Assembly (NCBI GenBank): GCA_965204375.1
Contig: OZ241986.1
Span: 5,440,001-5,504,000, forward strand
Reading direction: 5' to 3'
DNA length: 64,000 nucleotides
Source: Candidatus Latescibacterota bacterium
GTDB lineage: Bacteria > Latescibacterota > UBA2968
The notes beneath the pieces were generated by a model. That model was given only the letters and a program-made list of their open reading frames with translations, was not told the DNA's origin and made no database searches. Numbering within the stretch: position 1 is the stretch's first letter; every line of letters starts with the position of its first letter. Position numbers and translations under genes: made by a program. Below are positions 25,441 through 30,852 of this stretch, one piece after another.

Positions 25441-27021
25441 ATGCCCGAATTGTCCTGGTCTTTTCCGTATGCTTCCCAACGCATGCCGGTTATGGCGTGC
25501 AATGTGGTTGCGACATCTCAACCGCTGGCCGCTCAGGCTGGGTTGCGGATGTTGCTCAAGGGGGGCAATGCCGTAGATGCTGCTCTGGCGACAGCGATGG
25601 CGCTTACGGTTGTTGAACCCAATATGAATGGTATAGGTAGCGATGCGTTTTGCATTTTGTGGGATGGTGAGCAAATGTATGGTCTCAATGCATCGGGGCG
25701 TTCCCCAAAAGCGTGGTCGCCCGAATTGTTTGCAGCCCATGCTCAGATGCCCCAGCGCGGTTGGGATGCCGTGACTGTGCCTGGCTGTGTTTCGGCATGG
25801 GCCGAGGCTTCAGAGCGGTTTGGCGTGTTGCCGTTTGAGGCGTTGTTTGAACCCGCGATTCACTATGCCCGCGATGGTTTTGTTATTTCGCCTATTACCG
25901 GGCATAGTTGGGCACAGGCTGTGTATAATTATGGCGATATGCCCGATTGGATGGCGACTTTTGCACCCGGGGGGCGTGCGCCGAAAATTGGGGAGAAATT
26001 TGTGTGTGAAGCGCAGGCGCGTACGCTTGAGCGGATTGCGGAGACTAAAGGAGAGGCGTTCTATGCGGGTGATCTGGCAGAGAAGATCGCTGCGCATGCA
26101 AAACGCACTGGCGGTGCGATGACAGAAGAAGATCTGGCAGAGCATCGGGCAGATTGGATGGATACGATGACGATGGATTTCGGGGATTATACGCTGCACG
26201 AAATTCCTCCAAATGGTCAGGGTATTGCGGCACTGATTGCACTGGGGATACTGGAGAATTGGGATTTGTCCGGGTATGCCGTTGATTCGGCAGATAGTTT
26301 ACATCTTCAGATTGAGGCGATGAAGTTGGCGTATGCGGATACGCACAGGTATGTGTCTGATCCGGGTACGCGGGATATTGAGTTCGCGCAGTTGCTCGAT
26401 CCGGATTATCTGGCGCAACGCGCGAGGTTGATTGATCTGAAAAGGGCAGGGATGCCCACTTTTGGCATGCCGCGTGGCGATACGGTTTATCTTACGGCGG
26501 CAGATGAAGATGGGATGATGGTTTCGTTTATTCAGTCCAATTATATGGGTTTTGGATCTGGTATTGTGATTCCGGATACGGGTATTAGCATGCAGAACCG
26601 GGGCGCGGGTTTTGTTTTGACGGAGGGCCATCCCAATCGCGTGGATGGGGGCAAGCGACCGTATCATACGATTATTCCGGCGTTTGCGACCCGAGAGGGC
26701 CAACCTGTGATGTCTTTCGGCGTTATGGGCGGGCATATGCAGCCGCAAGGTCACGCGCAGATGATGATTCGGATTTTTGCTTATGGTCAAAATCCACAGG
26801 CTGCGTGCGATGCGCCCCGATGGCAGGTTTTTGGCGGTTTGAGTGTGGGTATTGAGCCAGGTGTGGATGCGGGTGTGCTGGACGATCTTCGCGCCCGCGG
26901 GCACGATATCGAAATTCCGTCGGCTATTGGATATGGTGGGGGTCAACTCATTTATAAATTGGACGATGGCTATTGCGCGGCTTCCGATCCTCGTAAGGAT
27001 GGCCTGGCAGTGGGGTATTGA
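25441..27021 (+). CDS. ggt: Gamma-glutamyltransferase family protein
   Basis: GGNAVDAA, NASGRSP, GDTVYL (Thr nucleophile), KRPYHTIIP, GVMGGHMQPQG, SDPRKDG. Confidence 0.93.
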   Translation: MPELSWSFPYASQRMPVMACNVVATSQPLAAQAGLRMLLKGGNAVDAALATAMALTVVEPNMNGIGSDAFCILWDGEQMYGLNASGRSPKAWSPELFAAHAQMPQRGWDAVTVPGCVSAWAEASERFGVLPFEALFEPAIHYARDGFVISPITGHSWAQAVYNYGDMPDWMATFAPGGRAPKIGEKFVCEAQARTLERIAETKGEAFYAGDLAEKIAAHAKRTGGAMTEEDLAEHRADWMDTMTMDFGDYTLHEIPPNGQGIAALIALGILENWDLSGYAVDSADSLHLQIEAMKLAYADTHRYVSDPGTRDIEFAQLLDPDYLAQRARLIDLKRAGMPTFGMPRGDTVYLTAADEDGMMVSFIQSNYMGFGSGIVIPDTGISMQNRGAGFVLTEGHPNRVDGGKRPYHTIIPAFATREGQPVMSFGVMGGHMQPQGHAQMMIRIFAYGQNPQAACDAPRWQVFGGLSVGIEPGVDAGVLDDLRARGHDIEIPSAIGYGGGQLIYKLDDGYCAASDPRKDGLAVGY

Positions 27022-27029
27022 AAACACTG

Positions 27030-27068
27030 TCAGAATCAGGATTTTCAGGATGAAAGGATGAGCAGGAT
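27030..27068. repeat. (CAGGAT)-type 9-nt periodic intergenic repeat
   Basis: TCAGAATCAGGATTTTCAGGATGAAAGGATGAGCAGGAT; an inverted relative lies at about 29690-29731. Confidence 0.6.
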
Positions 27069-27124
27069 ACCCCCAATCCCCTTAGACCAGGAGTCAGGTT
27101 CGACATCAAATAAATGGAATTCCA

Positions 27125-27859
27125 ATGAATAAACGCAAAGATACAGCCTGGCAGGCGCGGGATCTGGCGCAGAAATATCTGAAAAATATTCGGCAGGCAA
27201 TTCCGTTGTCCGATGAGCAGATTGCCGTTATGTGCCGGGTGATCAATGCGGATGGTCACAGGGTCGATACTGTGCTGGACCTGGGGTGTGGAGATGGCAT
27301 ACTCGGGGCTGCGGTTATTGAATATCATCCGGAGGCGCGCGGCGTGTTTGTAGATTTTTCTGAGGCTATGATTGAGGCTGCGCGGAAACGGTTTGGGGGA
27401 ACGGCTTCACAGCATCGTTTTGTTATTGGGGATTATGCGACATCCGATTGGCTCAGTCTGATTATAGATGACGCGCCGTATGATGCGATTGTGTCGGGTT
27501 TTTCAATTCATCACCAGAGCGATGAGCGCAAACGCGAGGTTTATGGCGAGATTTTTGATCTGCTATCGCCCAATGGCGTGTTTGTCAATGTCGAGCATGT
27601 TCGCTCTCCGTCGAAGTGGGTTGAGTCGCGTTTTGCAGATCGCTTTATTGATGCGCTTTACGATTCTGTCACGCGGAGAGACCCGAACGCATCTCGCGAT
27701 GAAATCGCGCGGGCTTATTATTATCGCGATGACAAACAGGCGAATATTCTCGCGTCTGTTGAAGATCAATGCGAATGGCTCAGAGCCATTGGGTTTTCAG
27801 ATGTAGATTGTTATTTCAAGCTGTTTGAACTCGCTGTTTTTGGCGGGAGAAAAGTTTAA
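27125..27859 (+). CDS. Class I SAM-dependent methyltransferase
   Basis: VLDLGCGDG motif I; YDAIVSGFSIHH; LSPNGVFV. Confidence 0.9.
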   Translation: MNKRKDTAWQARDLAQKYLKNIRQAIPLSDEQIAVMCRVINADGHRVDTVLDLGCGDGILGAAVIEYHPEARGVFVDFSEAMIEAARKRFGGTASQHRFVIGDYATSDWLSLIIDDAPYDAIVSGFSIHHQSDERKREVYGEIFDLLSPNGVFVNVEHVRSPSKWVESRFADRFIDALYDSVTRRDPNASRDEIARAYYYRDDKQANILASVEDQCEWLRAIGFSDVDCYFKLFELAVFGGRKV

Positions 27860-27866
27860 AAAAGCA

Positions 27867-27929
27867 CGAATCAACGGAACGGGGTACAACTGGCCGTCTC
27901 TCAGGCCAGTTCATCAACGAATCAACGAA
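27867..27929. repeat. About 60-bp hairpin-containing element with an inverted copy at 29781-29843
   Basis: ACGGAACGG(G/T)GTACAACTGGCCG(T/C)CTCTCAGGCCAGTTCATCAACGAA matches the reverse complement of 29781-29843. Confidence 0.85.
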
Positions 27930-27955
27930 AATGTAGTATTTACCGGGTGAATATC

Positions 27956-28045
27956 ATGTACATACACTATTTCCAAATCGCCCAATTCATTGGCAATAAT
28001 AATGACGATAATAATCCGATCCGGCGACGGGCTGGACCGGCATAG
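27956..28045 (+). CDS. aspS leader peptide with Asn/Asp codon cluster
   Basis: MYIHYFQIAQFIGNNNDDNNPIRRRAGPA*: seven consecutive Asn/Asp codons (AAT AAT AAT GAC GAT AAT AAT). Confidence 0.85.
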   Translation: MYIHYFQIAQFIGNNNDDNNPIRRRAGPA

Positions 28046-28075
28046 GTCGTCTTGTGCCAGCATGTAGAGTAAAGT

Positions 28076-28112
28076 GCCCGTTGTCAAAAAAATGTGACAA
28101 CGGGCTTTTTTT
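28076..28112 (+). terminator. aspS attenuator terminator
   Basis: GCCCGTTGTCA...TGACAACGGGC plus T7. The antiterminator strand GGCGACGGGC (28023-28032) pairs with 28076-28085. Confidence 0.88.
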
Positions 28113-28140
28113 GTGCCTGAAATTCAAAAAGGAGTCTGTC

Positions 28141-29448
28141 ATGAAATACATCGCAATATCTGAACTGTCCAAATACATCGGCCAAACCGTTACGCTTCAC
28201 GGATGGGTGCATGCCCTGCGCGACCAGAAGCATGTCCAGTTTCTCATTTTGAGAAATCGCACGGGAAGTGTACAGGTTGTTCACGAAAAGACAGGGGCGT
28301 TGGCAGAGCGGGTTTCTGCTCTCACGCGAGAATCGGCGGTGACTATAAGCGGATGTGTTGTAGAAAATTCAGGTGTTCGTCTGGGTGGTGTAGAGATTCA
28401 GCTTGAGGAACTGCGTGTTGTCAATGTAGCTGAATCTCCTTTACCCCTGGATCCGTTTTCCGAGAGTGCATCGGGTATCGACCATAGGCTGGATTGGCGG
28501 CATCTCGATCTTCGCGCTCCGCGCAATCGGTTGATTTTTGAGATACAGACCACTGTTGAAATAGCGATGCGCGAGTACTGGATGCAGAATCATTTTGTCG
28601 AGATCCACTCTCCCAAACTGATGGGTACAGCCAGTGAGTCGGGGGCTGAGTTGTTCGCGCTGCCGTATTTCAATTCCACAGCCTATTTGGCGCAATCGCC
28701 CCAGTTTTACAAACAGATGGCAATGGCGTCCGGTTTTGATCGCGTGTTTGAGATTGCGCCGGTTTTTCGCGCCGATCCCTCATTTACTTCGCGCCACACG
28801 ACAGAGTTTACCAGTGTGGATGTCGAGATCGCCTGGATTGATGGTCACGAGGATGTGATGGCATTTGAAGAAGCGTGGCTCCAGTATGTTATTCAAGTAG
28901 TGCGAGAAAGACACGGTGACGCTATTGCTGAAAATTACGGCGTTGAACTCACGGTGCCAGTGCTGCCTTTTCCGCGCGTCACGATGGCCGAGGCATTGAA
29001 GGTGTTGTCTGAACAGGGCCACGCGCCAGAGCGAGAAGGCGACCTCGATCCAAAGGGCGAGCGTTTGCTCGGTGAATATATTCGCGAAACCCGGGGATGC
29101 GATTATGTCTTTGTGATAGACTATCCAGTATCTGTGCGGCCATTTTACCACATGCGTCATCCAGAATATCCAGATTTGACCAGGAGTTTTGACCTGCTCT
29201 ATCGCGGTGTGGAAATTACCACAGGGGCGCAACGCGAACACCGTCCCGATGTTCTGAGGACTCAGGCAAGAGAGAAAGGGCTGGATTTAGAGGTTATCCA
29301 GTTTTATCTCGATTTTTTTAAGTACGGATGTCCTCCGCACGGGGGATTTGGTTTTGGCCTGTCGCGCCTGCTTATGGTTATGCTCGGGTTGTCCAATGTG
29401 CGCGAGACGACTTTTTTGTCCCGCACACCCAATAGGTTGCATCCATGA
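28141..29448 (+). CDS. aspS: Aspartate--tRNA(Asp/Asn) ligase, short archaeal-type non-discriminating AspRS
   Basis: About 435 aa; GWVHALRD, YLAQSPQFYKQ, FRADPSFTSRH, EITTGAQREH, PPHGGFGFGLSR; no GAD insertion; SD AAGGAG. Confidence 0.93.
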   Translation: MKYIAISELSKYIGQTVTLHGWVHALRDQKHVQFLILRNRTGSVQVVHEKTGALAERVSALTRESAVTISGCVVENSGVRLGGVEIQLEELRVVNVAESPLPLDPFSESASGIDHRLDWRHLDLRAPRNRLIFEIQTTVEIAMREYWMQNHFVEIHSPKLMGTASESGAELFALPYFNSTAYLAQSPQFYKQMAMASGFDRVFEIAPVFRADPSFTSRHTTEFTSVDVEIAWIDGHEDVMAFEEAWLQYVIQVVRERHGDAIAENYGVELTVPVLPFPRVTMAEALKVLSEQGHAPEREGDLDPKGERLLGEYIRETRGCDYVFVIDYPVSVRPFYHMRHPEYPDLTRSFDLLYRGVEITTGAQREHRPDVLRTQAREKGLDLEVIQFYLDFFKYGCPPHGGFGFGLSRLLMVMLGLSNVRETTFLSRTPNRLHP

Positions 29449-29856
29449 TATTGTGGTTTGTAGGGGCGACCCCCTGTGGTCGCCCGCTGACTGCTGCCCG
29501 CAGTCTCCGTGCCTTCGTCATCGCGGCATGCTTTAAGCCGCGATCCAGGAGGTTTTTGCTGACCAATATAATTTTAATGTTGCGGTACAACGACATATAG
29601 AGTTTTTTGTGATCGCGCCTTTTACTCTGTTCATCCCTGCTTACACCCGCAGGGACATGTCTGTGGTTGCTTTTATTGCTTTTGATTTTTATCCTGTAAA
29701 TCCTATAATCCTGTAAATCCTGATTCAGACAGTTTTTTGCCGTTTCATCTGTGGCTGCATTTTGGGGGGGCGGAGCGGGGTTCGTTGATGAACTGGCCTG
29801 AGAGGCGGCCAGTTGTACACCGTTCCGTCTATTCGTTGATTCGCCAAGGAGATCTC

Positions 29857-30852
29857 ATGCGTCAATACGATGTGTATGGGCTGGGCAATGCGCTGGTGGA
29901 TATTCAGTTTCGGGTCGATCCGTCGTTTTTTGAGGCGATGGAGATTGACAAGGGTGTGATGACGCTGATTGACGGAGACCGCCAGCGCGCGTTGATCGAT
30001 GCTTTGGGCGGGAAAGAGATGGCGCGTTCGTCGGGCGGTTCGGCAGCCAATACGATGATCGCGCTGGCCAATTGTGGTGGGAGGGGTTATTACGGGTGTA
30101 AGGTGGCTGAGGATGCAGATGGCGAGTTTTATCTTAGCGATCTCAATACTGCGGGGGTGGCGTGTAATCCATCACATCGCGGGCAAGGGGTTACGGGCAA
30201 GTGTCTGGTGATGATTACGGAGGATGCGGATCGCACGATGAATACATTTTTGGGGATTACGAGTACGTTTGGTGTGGCGCAGGTTGAGGATGCTGTGATT
30301 GCCGACAGCCAATTTATTTATATCGAGGGCTATCTAATTGCGGCAGACGATGGCTTTGAAGCGGCACAGGCGGCGCAAAAGGTGGCGCAGACGCACGGTA
30401 CAAAGGTCGCGCTTACCCTGAGTGATCCGTCTATTGTGGCTGCTTTTAAGGATAGGATGGCTGCGCTGGTGGATGCAGGCGTGGATATGCTGTTTTGCAA
30501 TGAAGATGAGGGTAGGATATTTACTGGTGCTGAGACGACAGAAGATGCTTTTGATGCGTTGCGACAACGAGTGGGCGGTTTGGCTTTGACGTATGGTGCT
30601 GAGGGTGCTCGGATTTGCGACGGTGGTGATGTGTTTCACGCGCCGGGTTTTGTGGTAGATGCTGTGGATACCAATGGCGCGGGCGACTCATTTGCCGGGG
30701 CGTATTTGTTTGCTGTGACCCGGGGGTATGACACGGCTCAGGCTGCGAGGCTCGCAACCTATGTTTCCTCGCGCGTTGTCGCCAAATACGGTCCGCGTTT
30801 TGAAAGGAAAATGAGTGGGACAGAGATCAACCGGATTTTGAAAATGCGTTAA
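29857..30852 (+). CDS. PfkB family kinase (adenosine kinase-like)
   Basis: GLGNALVD, SGGSAANT, DTNGAGDSFAGA; start ATG29857 after SD AAGGAG. Confidence 0.9.
   Translation: MRQYDVYGLGNALVDIQFRVDPSFFEAMEIDKGVMTLIDGDRQRALIDALGGKEMARSSGGSAANTMIALANCGGRGYYGCKVAEDADGEFYLSDLNTAGVACNPSHRGQGVTGKCLVMITEDADRTMNTFLGITSTFGVAQVEDAVIADSQFIYIEGYLIAADDGFEAAQAAQKVAQTHGTKVALTLSDPSIVAAFKDRMAALVDAGVDMLFCNEDEGRIFTGAETTEDAFDALRQRVGGLALTYGAEGARICDGGDVFHAPGFVVDAVDTNGAGDSFAGAYLFAVTRGYDTAQAARLATYVSSRVVAKYGPRFERKMSGTEINRILKMR

Follow-up and report, generated by a model that had tools for sequence, protein, structure and literature searches.

Classical amino acid attenuators (trpL, hisL, pheL, thrL, and pheM of pheST) share a short translated leader, a run of cognate codons, 1:2, 2:3, and 3:4 helices that exclude one another, and a terminator just before the gene, and pheST shows that leader attenuation can act on a tRNA synthetase gene. 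Here, we describe a locus with this architecture upstream of aspS2, which encodes an archaeal-type aspartyl-tRNA synthetase (AspRS), in 64,000 nucleotides (nt) of DNA from a Candidatus Latescibacterota bacterium (GenBank assembly GCA_965204375.1, contig OZ241986.1, positions 5,440,001 to 5,504,000 of the forward strand). This whole stretch is referred to as the window, and coordinates are positions in it unless stated otherwise. The locus differs from the classical attenuators in that its leader carries Asn and Asp codons (with His in one family), its target is an archaeal-type AspRS, and its host is an uncultured member of the Latescibacterota. Moreover, the leader ends in an arrest-type motif instead of a stop codon alone, and several genomes carry two tandem units.

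This last motif links the locus to the SecM and RAPP-like arrest peptides (SecM, ApdA, ApdP, ApcA, YwcI, and CruR). In the available portions of two studies (PMC10987492, PMC12992588), R-A-G-P is described as the arrest core of SecM, at its C-terminal end, and of Bacillus subtilis YwcI; in the latter, translation stalls while Gly occupies the P site, and a Pro-to-Ala change abolishes the arrest. RGPP and RAPP upstream open reading frames (uORFs) are absent from many Gram-positive groups according to the accessible part of PMC12992588, where the analysis of downstream genes took RAPP and RGPP, not RAGP. As in SecM (..GIRAGP) and YwcI, the leaders described here have R-A-G-P at the C-terminus, a few codons before the stop; the segment just upstream of the core is conserved, and its bases also form RNA helices. 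They differ from this family, as far as the same portions describe it, in that they have 29-47 residues with neither a long hydrophobic segment nor a signal or membrane stretch that could be pulled, and in that the downstream gene codes for a tRNA synthetase and is not a sec, yidC, TonB, copper, or other envelope gene; their predicted output is an intrinsic terminator and not the unmasking of a ribosome-binding site (RBS). Because there is no localization signal and a tRNA synthetase gene lies downstream, we classify the leader as sharing an arrest core, not as a monitoring substrate.

TnaC and SpeFL respond to a free ligand and operate through Rho, and the stalled ribosome turns the operon on. 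As in these systems, a ribosome stalled on the leader would decide here whether transcription goes on; the difference, within what the available descriptions of TnaC and SpeFL cover, is that the arrest is predicted to be constitutive and to turn the gene off by covering the antiterminator. For the control of asparagine synthesis on tRNA, the accessible part of PMC4206432 (citing Saad et al. 2012, 2013) describes an Asn T-box on the operon of the non-discriminating AspRS and GatCAB of Clostridium acetobutylicum. There too, a tRNA-dependent asparagine route is tied to the status of tRNA-Asn through a terminator/antiterminator switch, but the RNA itself binds uncharged tRNA, whereas the predicted sensor here is the translating ribosome and no T-box was found. 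In the full-text literature that we searched, which left subscription journals mostly outside and did not cover supplementary lists of RAPP-like uORFs, no Asn-codon attenuator, no leader of the extra archaeal-type AspRS (AspRS2), and no arrest core inside an amino acid attenuator was found.

All elements of the locus lie on the forward strand of the window. A Shine-Dalgarno-like (SD-like) GGGTGA (27945..27950), read from the sequence, ends 5 nt 5' of the ATG of the leader open reading frame (ORF; 27956..28045), whose translation is MYIHYFQIAQFIGNNNDDNNPIRRRAGPA (29 codons and a stop). Its codons 14-20 (27995..28015; AAT AAT AAT GAC GAT AAT AAT) form the run NNNDDNN and are followed by PIRRRAGP (28016..28039), an invariant peptide core with the RAGP arrest-type end. 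The R-R-R-A codons contain the 5' strand of the antiterminator, GGCGACGGGC (region 2, 28023..28032), part of which is sequestered in a small conserved 1:2 hairpin (28015..28036; RNAalifold consensus, columns 45-66 of alignment A1, the 21 sequences used for the pairing and covariation counts). Region 2 forms 10 base pairs, 2 of them G-U, with GCCCGUUGUC (28076-28085). The latter belongs to the 5' arm of an intrinsic terminator (28076..28112; arms 28076-28086 and 28095-28105, 11 pairs of which 7 are G-C, an 8-nt loop, and a T7 tract at 28106-28112), so that this arm doubles as the antiterminator partner (region 3). The aspS2 ATG lies 28 nt after the T-tract, at 28141, with an AGGAG RBS (28130..28134, also read from the sequence) 6 nt 5' of it; the gene (28141..29448) codes for an archaeal-type aspartate--tRNA(Asn) ligase of 435 amino acids (aa). 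The leader, its N/D run, the 10-bp helix, the 11-bp terminator with its T7, and the 28-nt gap had all been listed in an earlier note on this DNA, and all of them are in the sequence.

A single promoter-like site was found in 27500-29800, at 29682, and none between the T-tract and the RBS; given this result and the 28-nt gap, transcription of aspS2 must come through the terminator. An SD-like motif precedes the chosen leader start in 10 of 13 variants, and a GG(A/G)T(A/G)AATA box 5' of the leader ATG recurs in congeners regardless of the sequence upstream. A T-box or another known RNA family as the sensor was rejected after an Rfam search over 27000-29000, which returned no T-box even at E ≤ 10 and no other family (three matches, all with E ≥ 1). 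Among contigs from four RNA runs, which may contain DNA and do not show transcript ends, X18 and X19 have pieces over both the leader and the gene body, X21 over the leader, and X20 over the gene body, and one contig (X19 record 11) joins the end of the upstream methyltransferase gene to the leader.

The predicted RNA structure of this region exceeds chance. The fold of 27940-28125 reaches -61.5 kcal/mol (z = -4.25; 0/200 shuffles fold as well), and the antiterminator duplex -19.9 kcal/mol (z = -3.9, 200 shuffles of the 27-nt strand). On A1, 92.6% of the cells are paired for the terminator and 90.1% for the antiterminator, the latter against 26.6-55.7% when the strand is slid. Both sides change in 7/13 terminator pairs and in 3/12 antiterminator pairs, and 0/500 shuffles reach the covariation score of either helix; these counts overstate independence, since A1 consists of related sequences and the changes arose in few lineages. 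In the genus of this genome, the 1:2 hairpin extends to 27999-28055 (-23.7 kcal/mol). Across 25 units, the duplex of the I-R-R-R-A codons with the terminator 5' arm has energies between -14.4 and -25.2 kcal/mol, close to those of the terminators, and the spacing is kept: counted from the Ile codon, the stop codon follows at 24-33 nt and the terminator at 51-58 nt (in G085, the fold begins at +42 through an extra 5' hairpin, and the stem proper at +54). Constrained folding reproduced both states of the putative switch: with the A site of a ribosome masked on codons 14-19, the nascent transcript forms the antiterminator, in agreement with the earlier proposal that stalling would free this strand, and with a ribosome masked over 28022-28049, only the terminator forms.

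A survey of 132 genomes of the class (E ≤ 1e-70) revealed an aspS2 match in 28, namely 17 of 30 genomes of family f1 in addition to the genome studied here, 8/22 in family f2, 2/3 in f3, and 0/76 in f4. Reading of the DNA upstream of these genes showed a leader with a RAGP end followed by a terminator in 25 of the 28, and with the compensatory changes in both helices the conservation and covariation that the earlier note had looked to among orthologs were found within the class. The three exceptions are G079, which lacks the leader and where aspS2 abuts another ORF, and G022 and G089, where aspS2 contains internal stops and the motif has decayed to RRWRPP and RRRRHP. The genes next to aspS2 vary, with a methyltransferase here, a class-I aminoacyl-tRNA synthetase in G037, and a GNAT protein in G036; since the flanking genes differ between genera, the leader-terminator unit travels with aspS2 and belongs to it. 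In G012 (L123), only the apparent last few codons of aspS2 follow the T-tract.

The leader was also present in 11/11 Latescibacterota loci among 80 loci returned from a species collection, whereas in the 69 loci from other phyla (Anaerolineae, Solirubrobacterales, and others), no ORF rich in N/D and ending in this way occurred within 500 nt. A profile built from 12 leaders retrieved 9 small database proteins, all of the leader type, including new variants such as NPNNNNNNHNPIQRRAGP. Two leader-terminator units stand in tandem before aspS2 in L111, L270, L110, L024, and L272 (G036, G077, G026, G022, and G089); the distal units are N/D-rich (e.g., MLDNNRNNNDRNE and SNPNPNRDNS) and have their own antiterminator but no RAGP. 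Other candidates were discarded. A strict peptide scan of the own genome for a second leader gave one other site, which sits inside the frame of another gene and was attributed to chance; a recurrent PIHRSAGP site in congeners is inside a longer coding region and is not a leader; and matches of a phylum scan in f4 were chance hits with neither N-run nor terminator. In metagenomes, a degenerate core pattern matched at least 119 stretches, and none of the 80 loci that were read among the matches listed was a leader; the majority were GC-rich frames, and L194 and L230 fall within the gene of a periplasmic protein. With this scope, the scan is no evidence of absence. Likewise, no leader was seen when 600 nt upstream of each of asnS, the bacterial aspS, and gatA were inspected by eye.

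The product of aspS2 scores 507.4 bits with NF003483 (cut-off 353) and 409.5 bits with TIGR00458 (cut-off 368.4), which places it in the archaeal-type aspartate--tRNA(Asn) ligase family, in line with the earlier reading of the gene as an aspS, and contains the Pfam domains tRNA-synt_2 and OB anticodon. With 435 aa, compared with 594 aa for the frame of the bacterial AspRS paralogue, it lacks the bacterial insertion domain, as expected for the archaeal-type family. The companion genes named in the earlier note (gatCAB, asnS, and a second aspS) were represented in the 6.34 Mb genome by adjacent gatA and gatB, an asparaginyl-tRNA synthetase (AsnRS; 491.8 bits, cut-off 342.6), and a bacterial aspS, while profile searches of this genome revealed no asnA and no asnB above the cut-off. 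The single tRNA-Asn has U1-A72, a pair cited as required by bacterial GatCAB in the accessible part of PMC4206432, and tRNA-Asp has G1-C72. The same part of this source describes how, in Deinococcus and Thermus, an extra archaeal-type AspRS and GatCAB make asparagine on tRNA. The genome studied here resembles those of Deinococcus radiodurans and Thermus thermophilus, as characterized there, in that an archaeal-type AspRS accompanies AsnRS and the bacterial enzyme, GatA and GatB and a U1-A72 tRNA-Asn are present, and neither AsnA nor AsnB exceeds the cut-off; it differs in that it belongs to another phylum and contains a divergent AsnB-like gene, and in that aspS2 is dispensable in some congeners. 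We know of no regulatory leader for AspRS2 in D. radiodurans or T. thermophilus. The aspS2 product is likely a non-discriminating AspRS that would feed GatCAB for the synthesis of Asn-tRNA-Asn; gatA, gatB, and the U1-A72 tRNA-Asn offer supporting context for this.

The composition of the codon run is far from that of the genome. Of the 156 residues that make up the 12 positions before the core in 13 variants, 65 are N, 26 D, 15 H, and 12 P, so that N (42%), D (17%), and H (10%) compare with 3.7%, 6.3%, and 2.4% in the genome. Only synonymous changes are seen in the N/D run within genus g1; between genera, the composition is kept and the positions are not (NNNDDNN, NPDHNNNHHG, NPNENPH). The fillers are also restricted, as D, H, or Y account for 21/23 of the non-N, non-P run residues in genera g6 and g8 (a tally of variant windows), and these D, H, and Y fillers are NAY codons. 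One database variant is nearly pure Asn (NPNNNNNNHNP). The earlier note had postulated dual sensing of Asn and Asp, with a codon content matched to the dual specificity of the enzyme. All 13 tabulated variants are indeed N-rich with at least one Asp codon, but Asn dominates, and dual sensing is not supported. An Asn/Asp match does not predict the His codons, which in f2 are nearly as common as those for Asp. The tRNA genes for Asn, Asp, His, and Tyr are each present in a single copy. Elsewhere in the own genome (C1:2019313-2022432, L003), hisS is the immediate upstream neighbor of the bacterial-type aspS (the hisS ORF, which is partial, gives 245.8 bits to TIGR00442, profile positions 85-403); this adjacency is of interest because His codons occur in some aspS2 leaders.

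Every gene-proximal leader ends in P-I-[R/Q]-R-R-A-G-P, followed by 1-4 free residues in 12 of 13 variants, and I-x-R-R-A-G-P is invariant in 12 aligned leaders (alignment A2) and in the 9 database peptides. The earlier note had overlooked this element, which changes how the default-off state is probably set. Several features speak for a role of the peptide as such. The Ala and Gly of the core each use all four codons, and the Pro28 codon, which is outside every consensus helix, is CCG or CCA in 21/21 sequences. Conservation stops sharply after Pro28, the later residues being free in sequence and in length, and the leader of G026 has no stop codon after RAGP. The motif is found in 25/25 proximal leaders of loci retained with the gene and in 0/5 distal units, and it has decayed in both loci whose aspS2 contains stops. 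The P-I-[R/Q]-R segment N-terminal of the core is conserved as well, and the same bases form RNA helices. By analogy with YwcI, the ribosome is predicted to stall when Gly27 occupies the P site and Pro28 the A site.

Taken together, these observations lead us to propose an Asn(/Asp)-codon attenuator of aspS2 with termination as the default, in which an unstarved ribosome would be parked on the antiterminator strand by the RAGP arrest. We give this full model a probability of roughly 55%, while its attenuator core, taken without the arrest, is very probably correct. Transcription would arrive from upstream, and the 29-codon leader would be translated behind RNA polymerase. When Asn-tRNA-Asn (and probably also Asp-tRNA-Asp) is scarce, the ribosome would halt in NNNDDNN, open the 1:2 hairpin, and leave region 2 accessible for pairing with region 3 once this is made, allowing the polymerase to read into aspS2. 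With charged tRNAs, the ribosome would continue to R-A-G-P and arrest there in the manner of SecM and YwcI, with a footprint (about 28022-28049) that would cover exactly region 2; the 3:4 terminator would then form and transcription would stop at 28106-28112. The role of the arrest would be to keep the ribosome in place while the polymerase makes the next 60-80 nt.

It is important to note that a number of observations weigh against this model or parts of it. At equilibrium, the full transcript favors the terminator fold in every masked state, so that the model rests on kinetics. The compensatory changes are supplied by few lineages and represent few independent events, the antiterminator of G001 contains a G-G mismatch, and the duplex of G026 is weak (-14.4 kcal/mol, z -1.6). 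Although the leader and the gene are both represented in the RNA-library contigs, such contigs cannot show termination, and no listed piece bridges 28080-28105. Concerning the codons, the 15 His codons among the 156 run positions and one Tyr, in family f2, are not predicted by an Asn/Asp logic. Concerning the physiology, the own genome encodes a divergent AsnB-like protein (117.7 bits against a cut-off of 267.1), and aspS2 and asnB do not complement each other in 41 relatives (both in 4, aspS2 only in 14, asnB only in 7, neither in 16). G012 keeps an intact leader and terminator although aspS2 has been deleted. As for the arrest, the antiterminator and the 1:2 hairpin both involve the initial two bases of the Ala and Gly codons, and because these bases are paired, RNA constraint alone could explain part of the Ala/Gly invariance. 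RAGP is not significantly avoided in the long ORFs of the own genome, with 22 occurrences observed for 51.8 expected, a ratio of 0.42 that falls within the range of 24 permutations (0.25-0.89) on a crude ORF set. Finally, most RAPP-like sequences tested in the accessible parts of PMC10987492 and PMC12992588 did not stall, and RAGP is insufficient by itself.

The last points bear on a rival explanation, in which the locus would be a classical Asn(/Asp) attenuator only, with the nearby stop codon holding the ribosome as in trpL and RRRAGP arising as a by-product of the RNA sequence, with no nascent-chain arrest. Indeed, the antiterminator strand coincides with the R-R-R-A codons, pairing joins the GG of the Gly codon to the CC of Pro21, constrained folds with the ribosome placed on the leader stop codon likewise yield the terminator, and the distal units function without RAGP, if they are functional at all; the failure of most RAPP-like sequences to stall would fit as well. 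This explanation does not account for the invariance of a Pro28 codon that is in no consensus helix, for the sharp break in conservation just after it, for the G026 leader with no stop after RAGP, or for the distribution of RAGP among proximal leaders, distal units, and decayed loci, and the accidental origin of a rare, known arrest core would be surprising. We therefore regard it as unlikely, though far from negligible. The invariant core would be retained for a reason if the arrest peptide were itself the sensor, the N/D/H segment and RAGP touching the exit tunnel and a small molecule (free Asn, Asp, or other) or a ribosome state setting the arrest, as in TnaC or SpeFL, without codon starvation. 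Such a role would suit the position of the polar N/D/H segment, 8-15 residues from the peptidyl-transferase center, where known arrest peptides hold modulating residues according to the available text of PMC10987492, and the His residues of the run are easier to explain by the chemistry of the peptide than by a signal at the codon level. A peptide sensor would nevertheless not be expected to vary its run positions between genera while keeping only the composition, nor would the distal units be expected to retain an N-rich run with no arrest core, and the geometry seen in the constrained folds suits stalling at hungry codons. A sensor of this kind is, in our view, distinctly improbable.

The run might also report on something other than the supply of Asn and Asp. 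The tRNAs for Asn, Asp, His, and Tyr share G/Q34-U35, and MgtL is known for destabilization of the ribosome by its nascent chain. The speed of NAY-codon decoding (Asn, Asp, His, Tyr), possibly with queuosine status, could thus be read out, or a D/E/N/P-rich chain could destabilize the ribosome as in MgtL. The D, H, or Y fillers of g6 and g8 and the single-copy tRNA genes would agree with the first version, and the interspersed proline and acidic residues (NPNPNDDNNP, DPDHDRNPNENPHP) with the second. Asn is, however, dominant in every variant, to near purity in one database peptide, and we know of no link of queuosine or Mg2+ to an extra AspRS, which also counts against these possibilities; we consider them very improbable. 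A related two-checkpoint device, in which a constitutive RAGP arrest would act as the brake that keeps the gene off while the run measures the decoding speed of NAY codons, so that aspS2 would respond to how far these tRNAs are charged and perhaps also to their queuosine status, is a long shot. Class-IIb synthetases read the shared G/Q34-U35 anticodon of the NAY tRNAs. Finally, the structure could be the ordinary terminator of the upstream methyltransferase gene beside a chance small ORF, with no regulation, since in most congeners the leader ATG lies only 5 nt past the methyltransferase stop. This is scarcely credible, as it is contradicted by the comparative data: the unit accompanies aspS2 into different neighborhoods, the leader ORF and the antiterminator are both conserved, and the interval from the T-tract to the RBS leaves no room for a promoter. 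The codon-reading attenuator with a ribosome parked by RAGP thus remains our preferred model.

Around the locus, the window encodes a gamma-glutamyltranspeptidase (25441-27021) and a class-I SAM methyltransferase (27125-27859) before the leader and a PfkB-family kinase (29737-30852) after aspS2, and none of the three is kept beside aspS2 in other genera. The position of the leader ATG 5 nt after the methyltransferase stop in most congeners suggests translational coupling. In this genome, a dispersed repeat of about 60 nt (27866-27929) sits between the two; it has direct ACGAATCAACG ends around a hairpin (ACTGGCC...GGCCAGT), gave 50 blastn-short matches with a 96-nt query (self included), shows very high contig depth in the RNA libraries, and is not at this place in most congeners. 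Two further small dispersed repeats, at 27015-27080 and 29500-29570 (49 and 28 blastn-short genome matches, self included), flank the methyltransferase-aspS2 block and are joined on opposite strands by RNA-library contigs. In L012, L016, and L018 (G004, G015, and G018), an insertion of about 90 nt (CTGACTGACGTTACGCATGTC...) lies between the terminator and the aspS2 RBS and is probably a further small mobile repeat. Sequences related to 27700-28700 were found in public runs labeled as sponge or coral metagenomes or metatranscriptomes, with small shares (0.22-0.31 in DNA runs and 0.07-0.14 in six RNA runs).

If the proposed model is true, the aspS2 leader would provide the first case of leader-peptide attenuation that responds to asparagine, in a phylum with no cultured model, and the first description of a regulatory element for the extra archaeal-type AspRS through which bacteria can synthesize asparagine on tRNA. 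It would also place a SecM-type core in a new role, that of holding the ribosome on the antiterminator until the terminator forms instead of monitoring secretion, and would give a broader meaning to RAPP-like motifs in unannotated small ORFs. The leader would then be a compact part for studying the combination of arrest and hungry-codon stalling, testable in extracts of Escherichia coli or B. subtilis.

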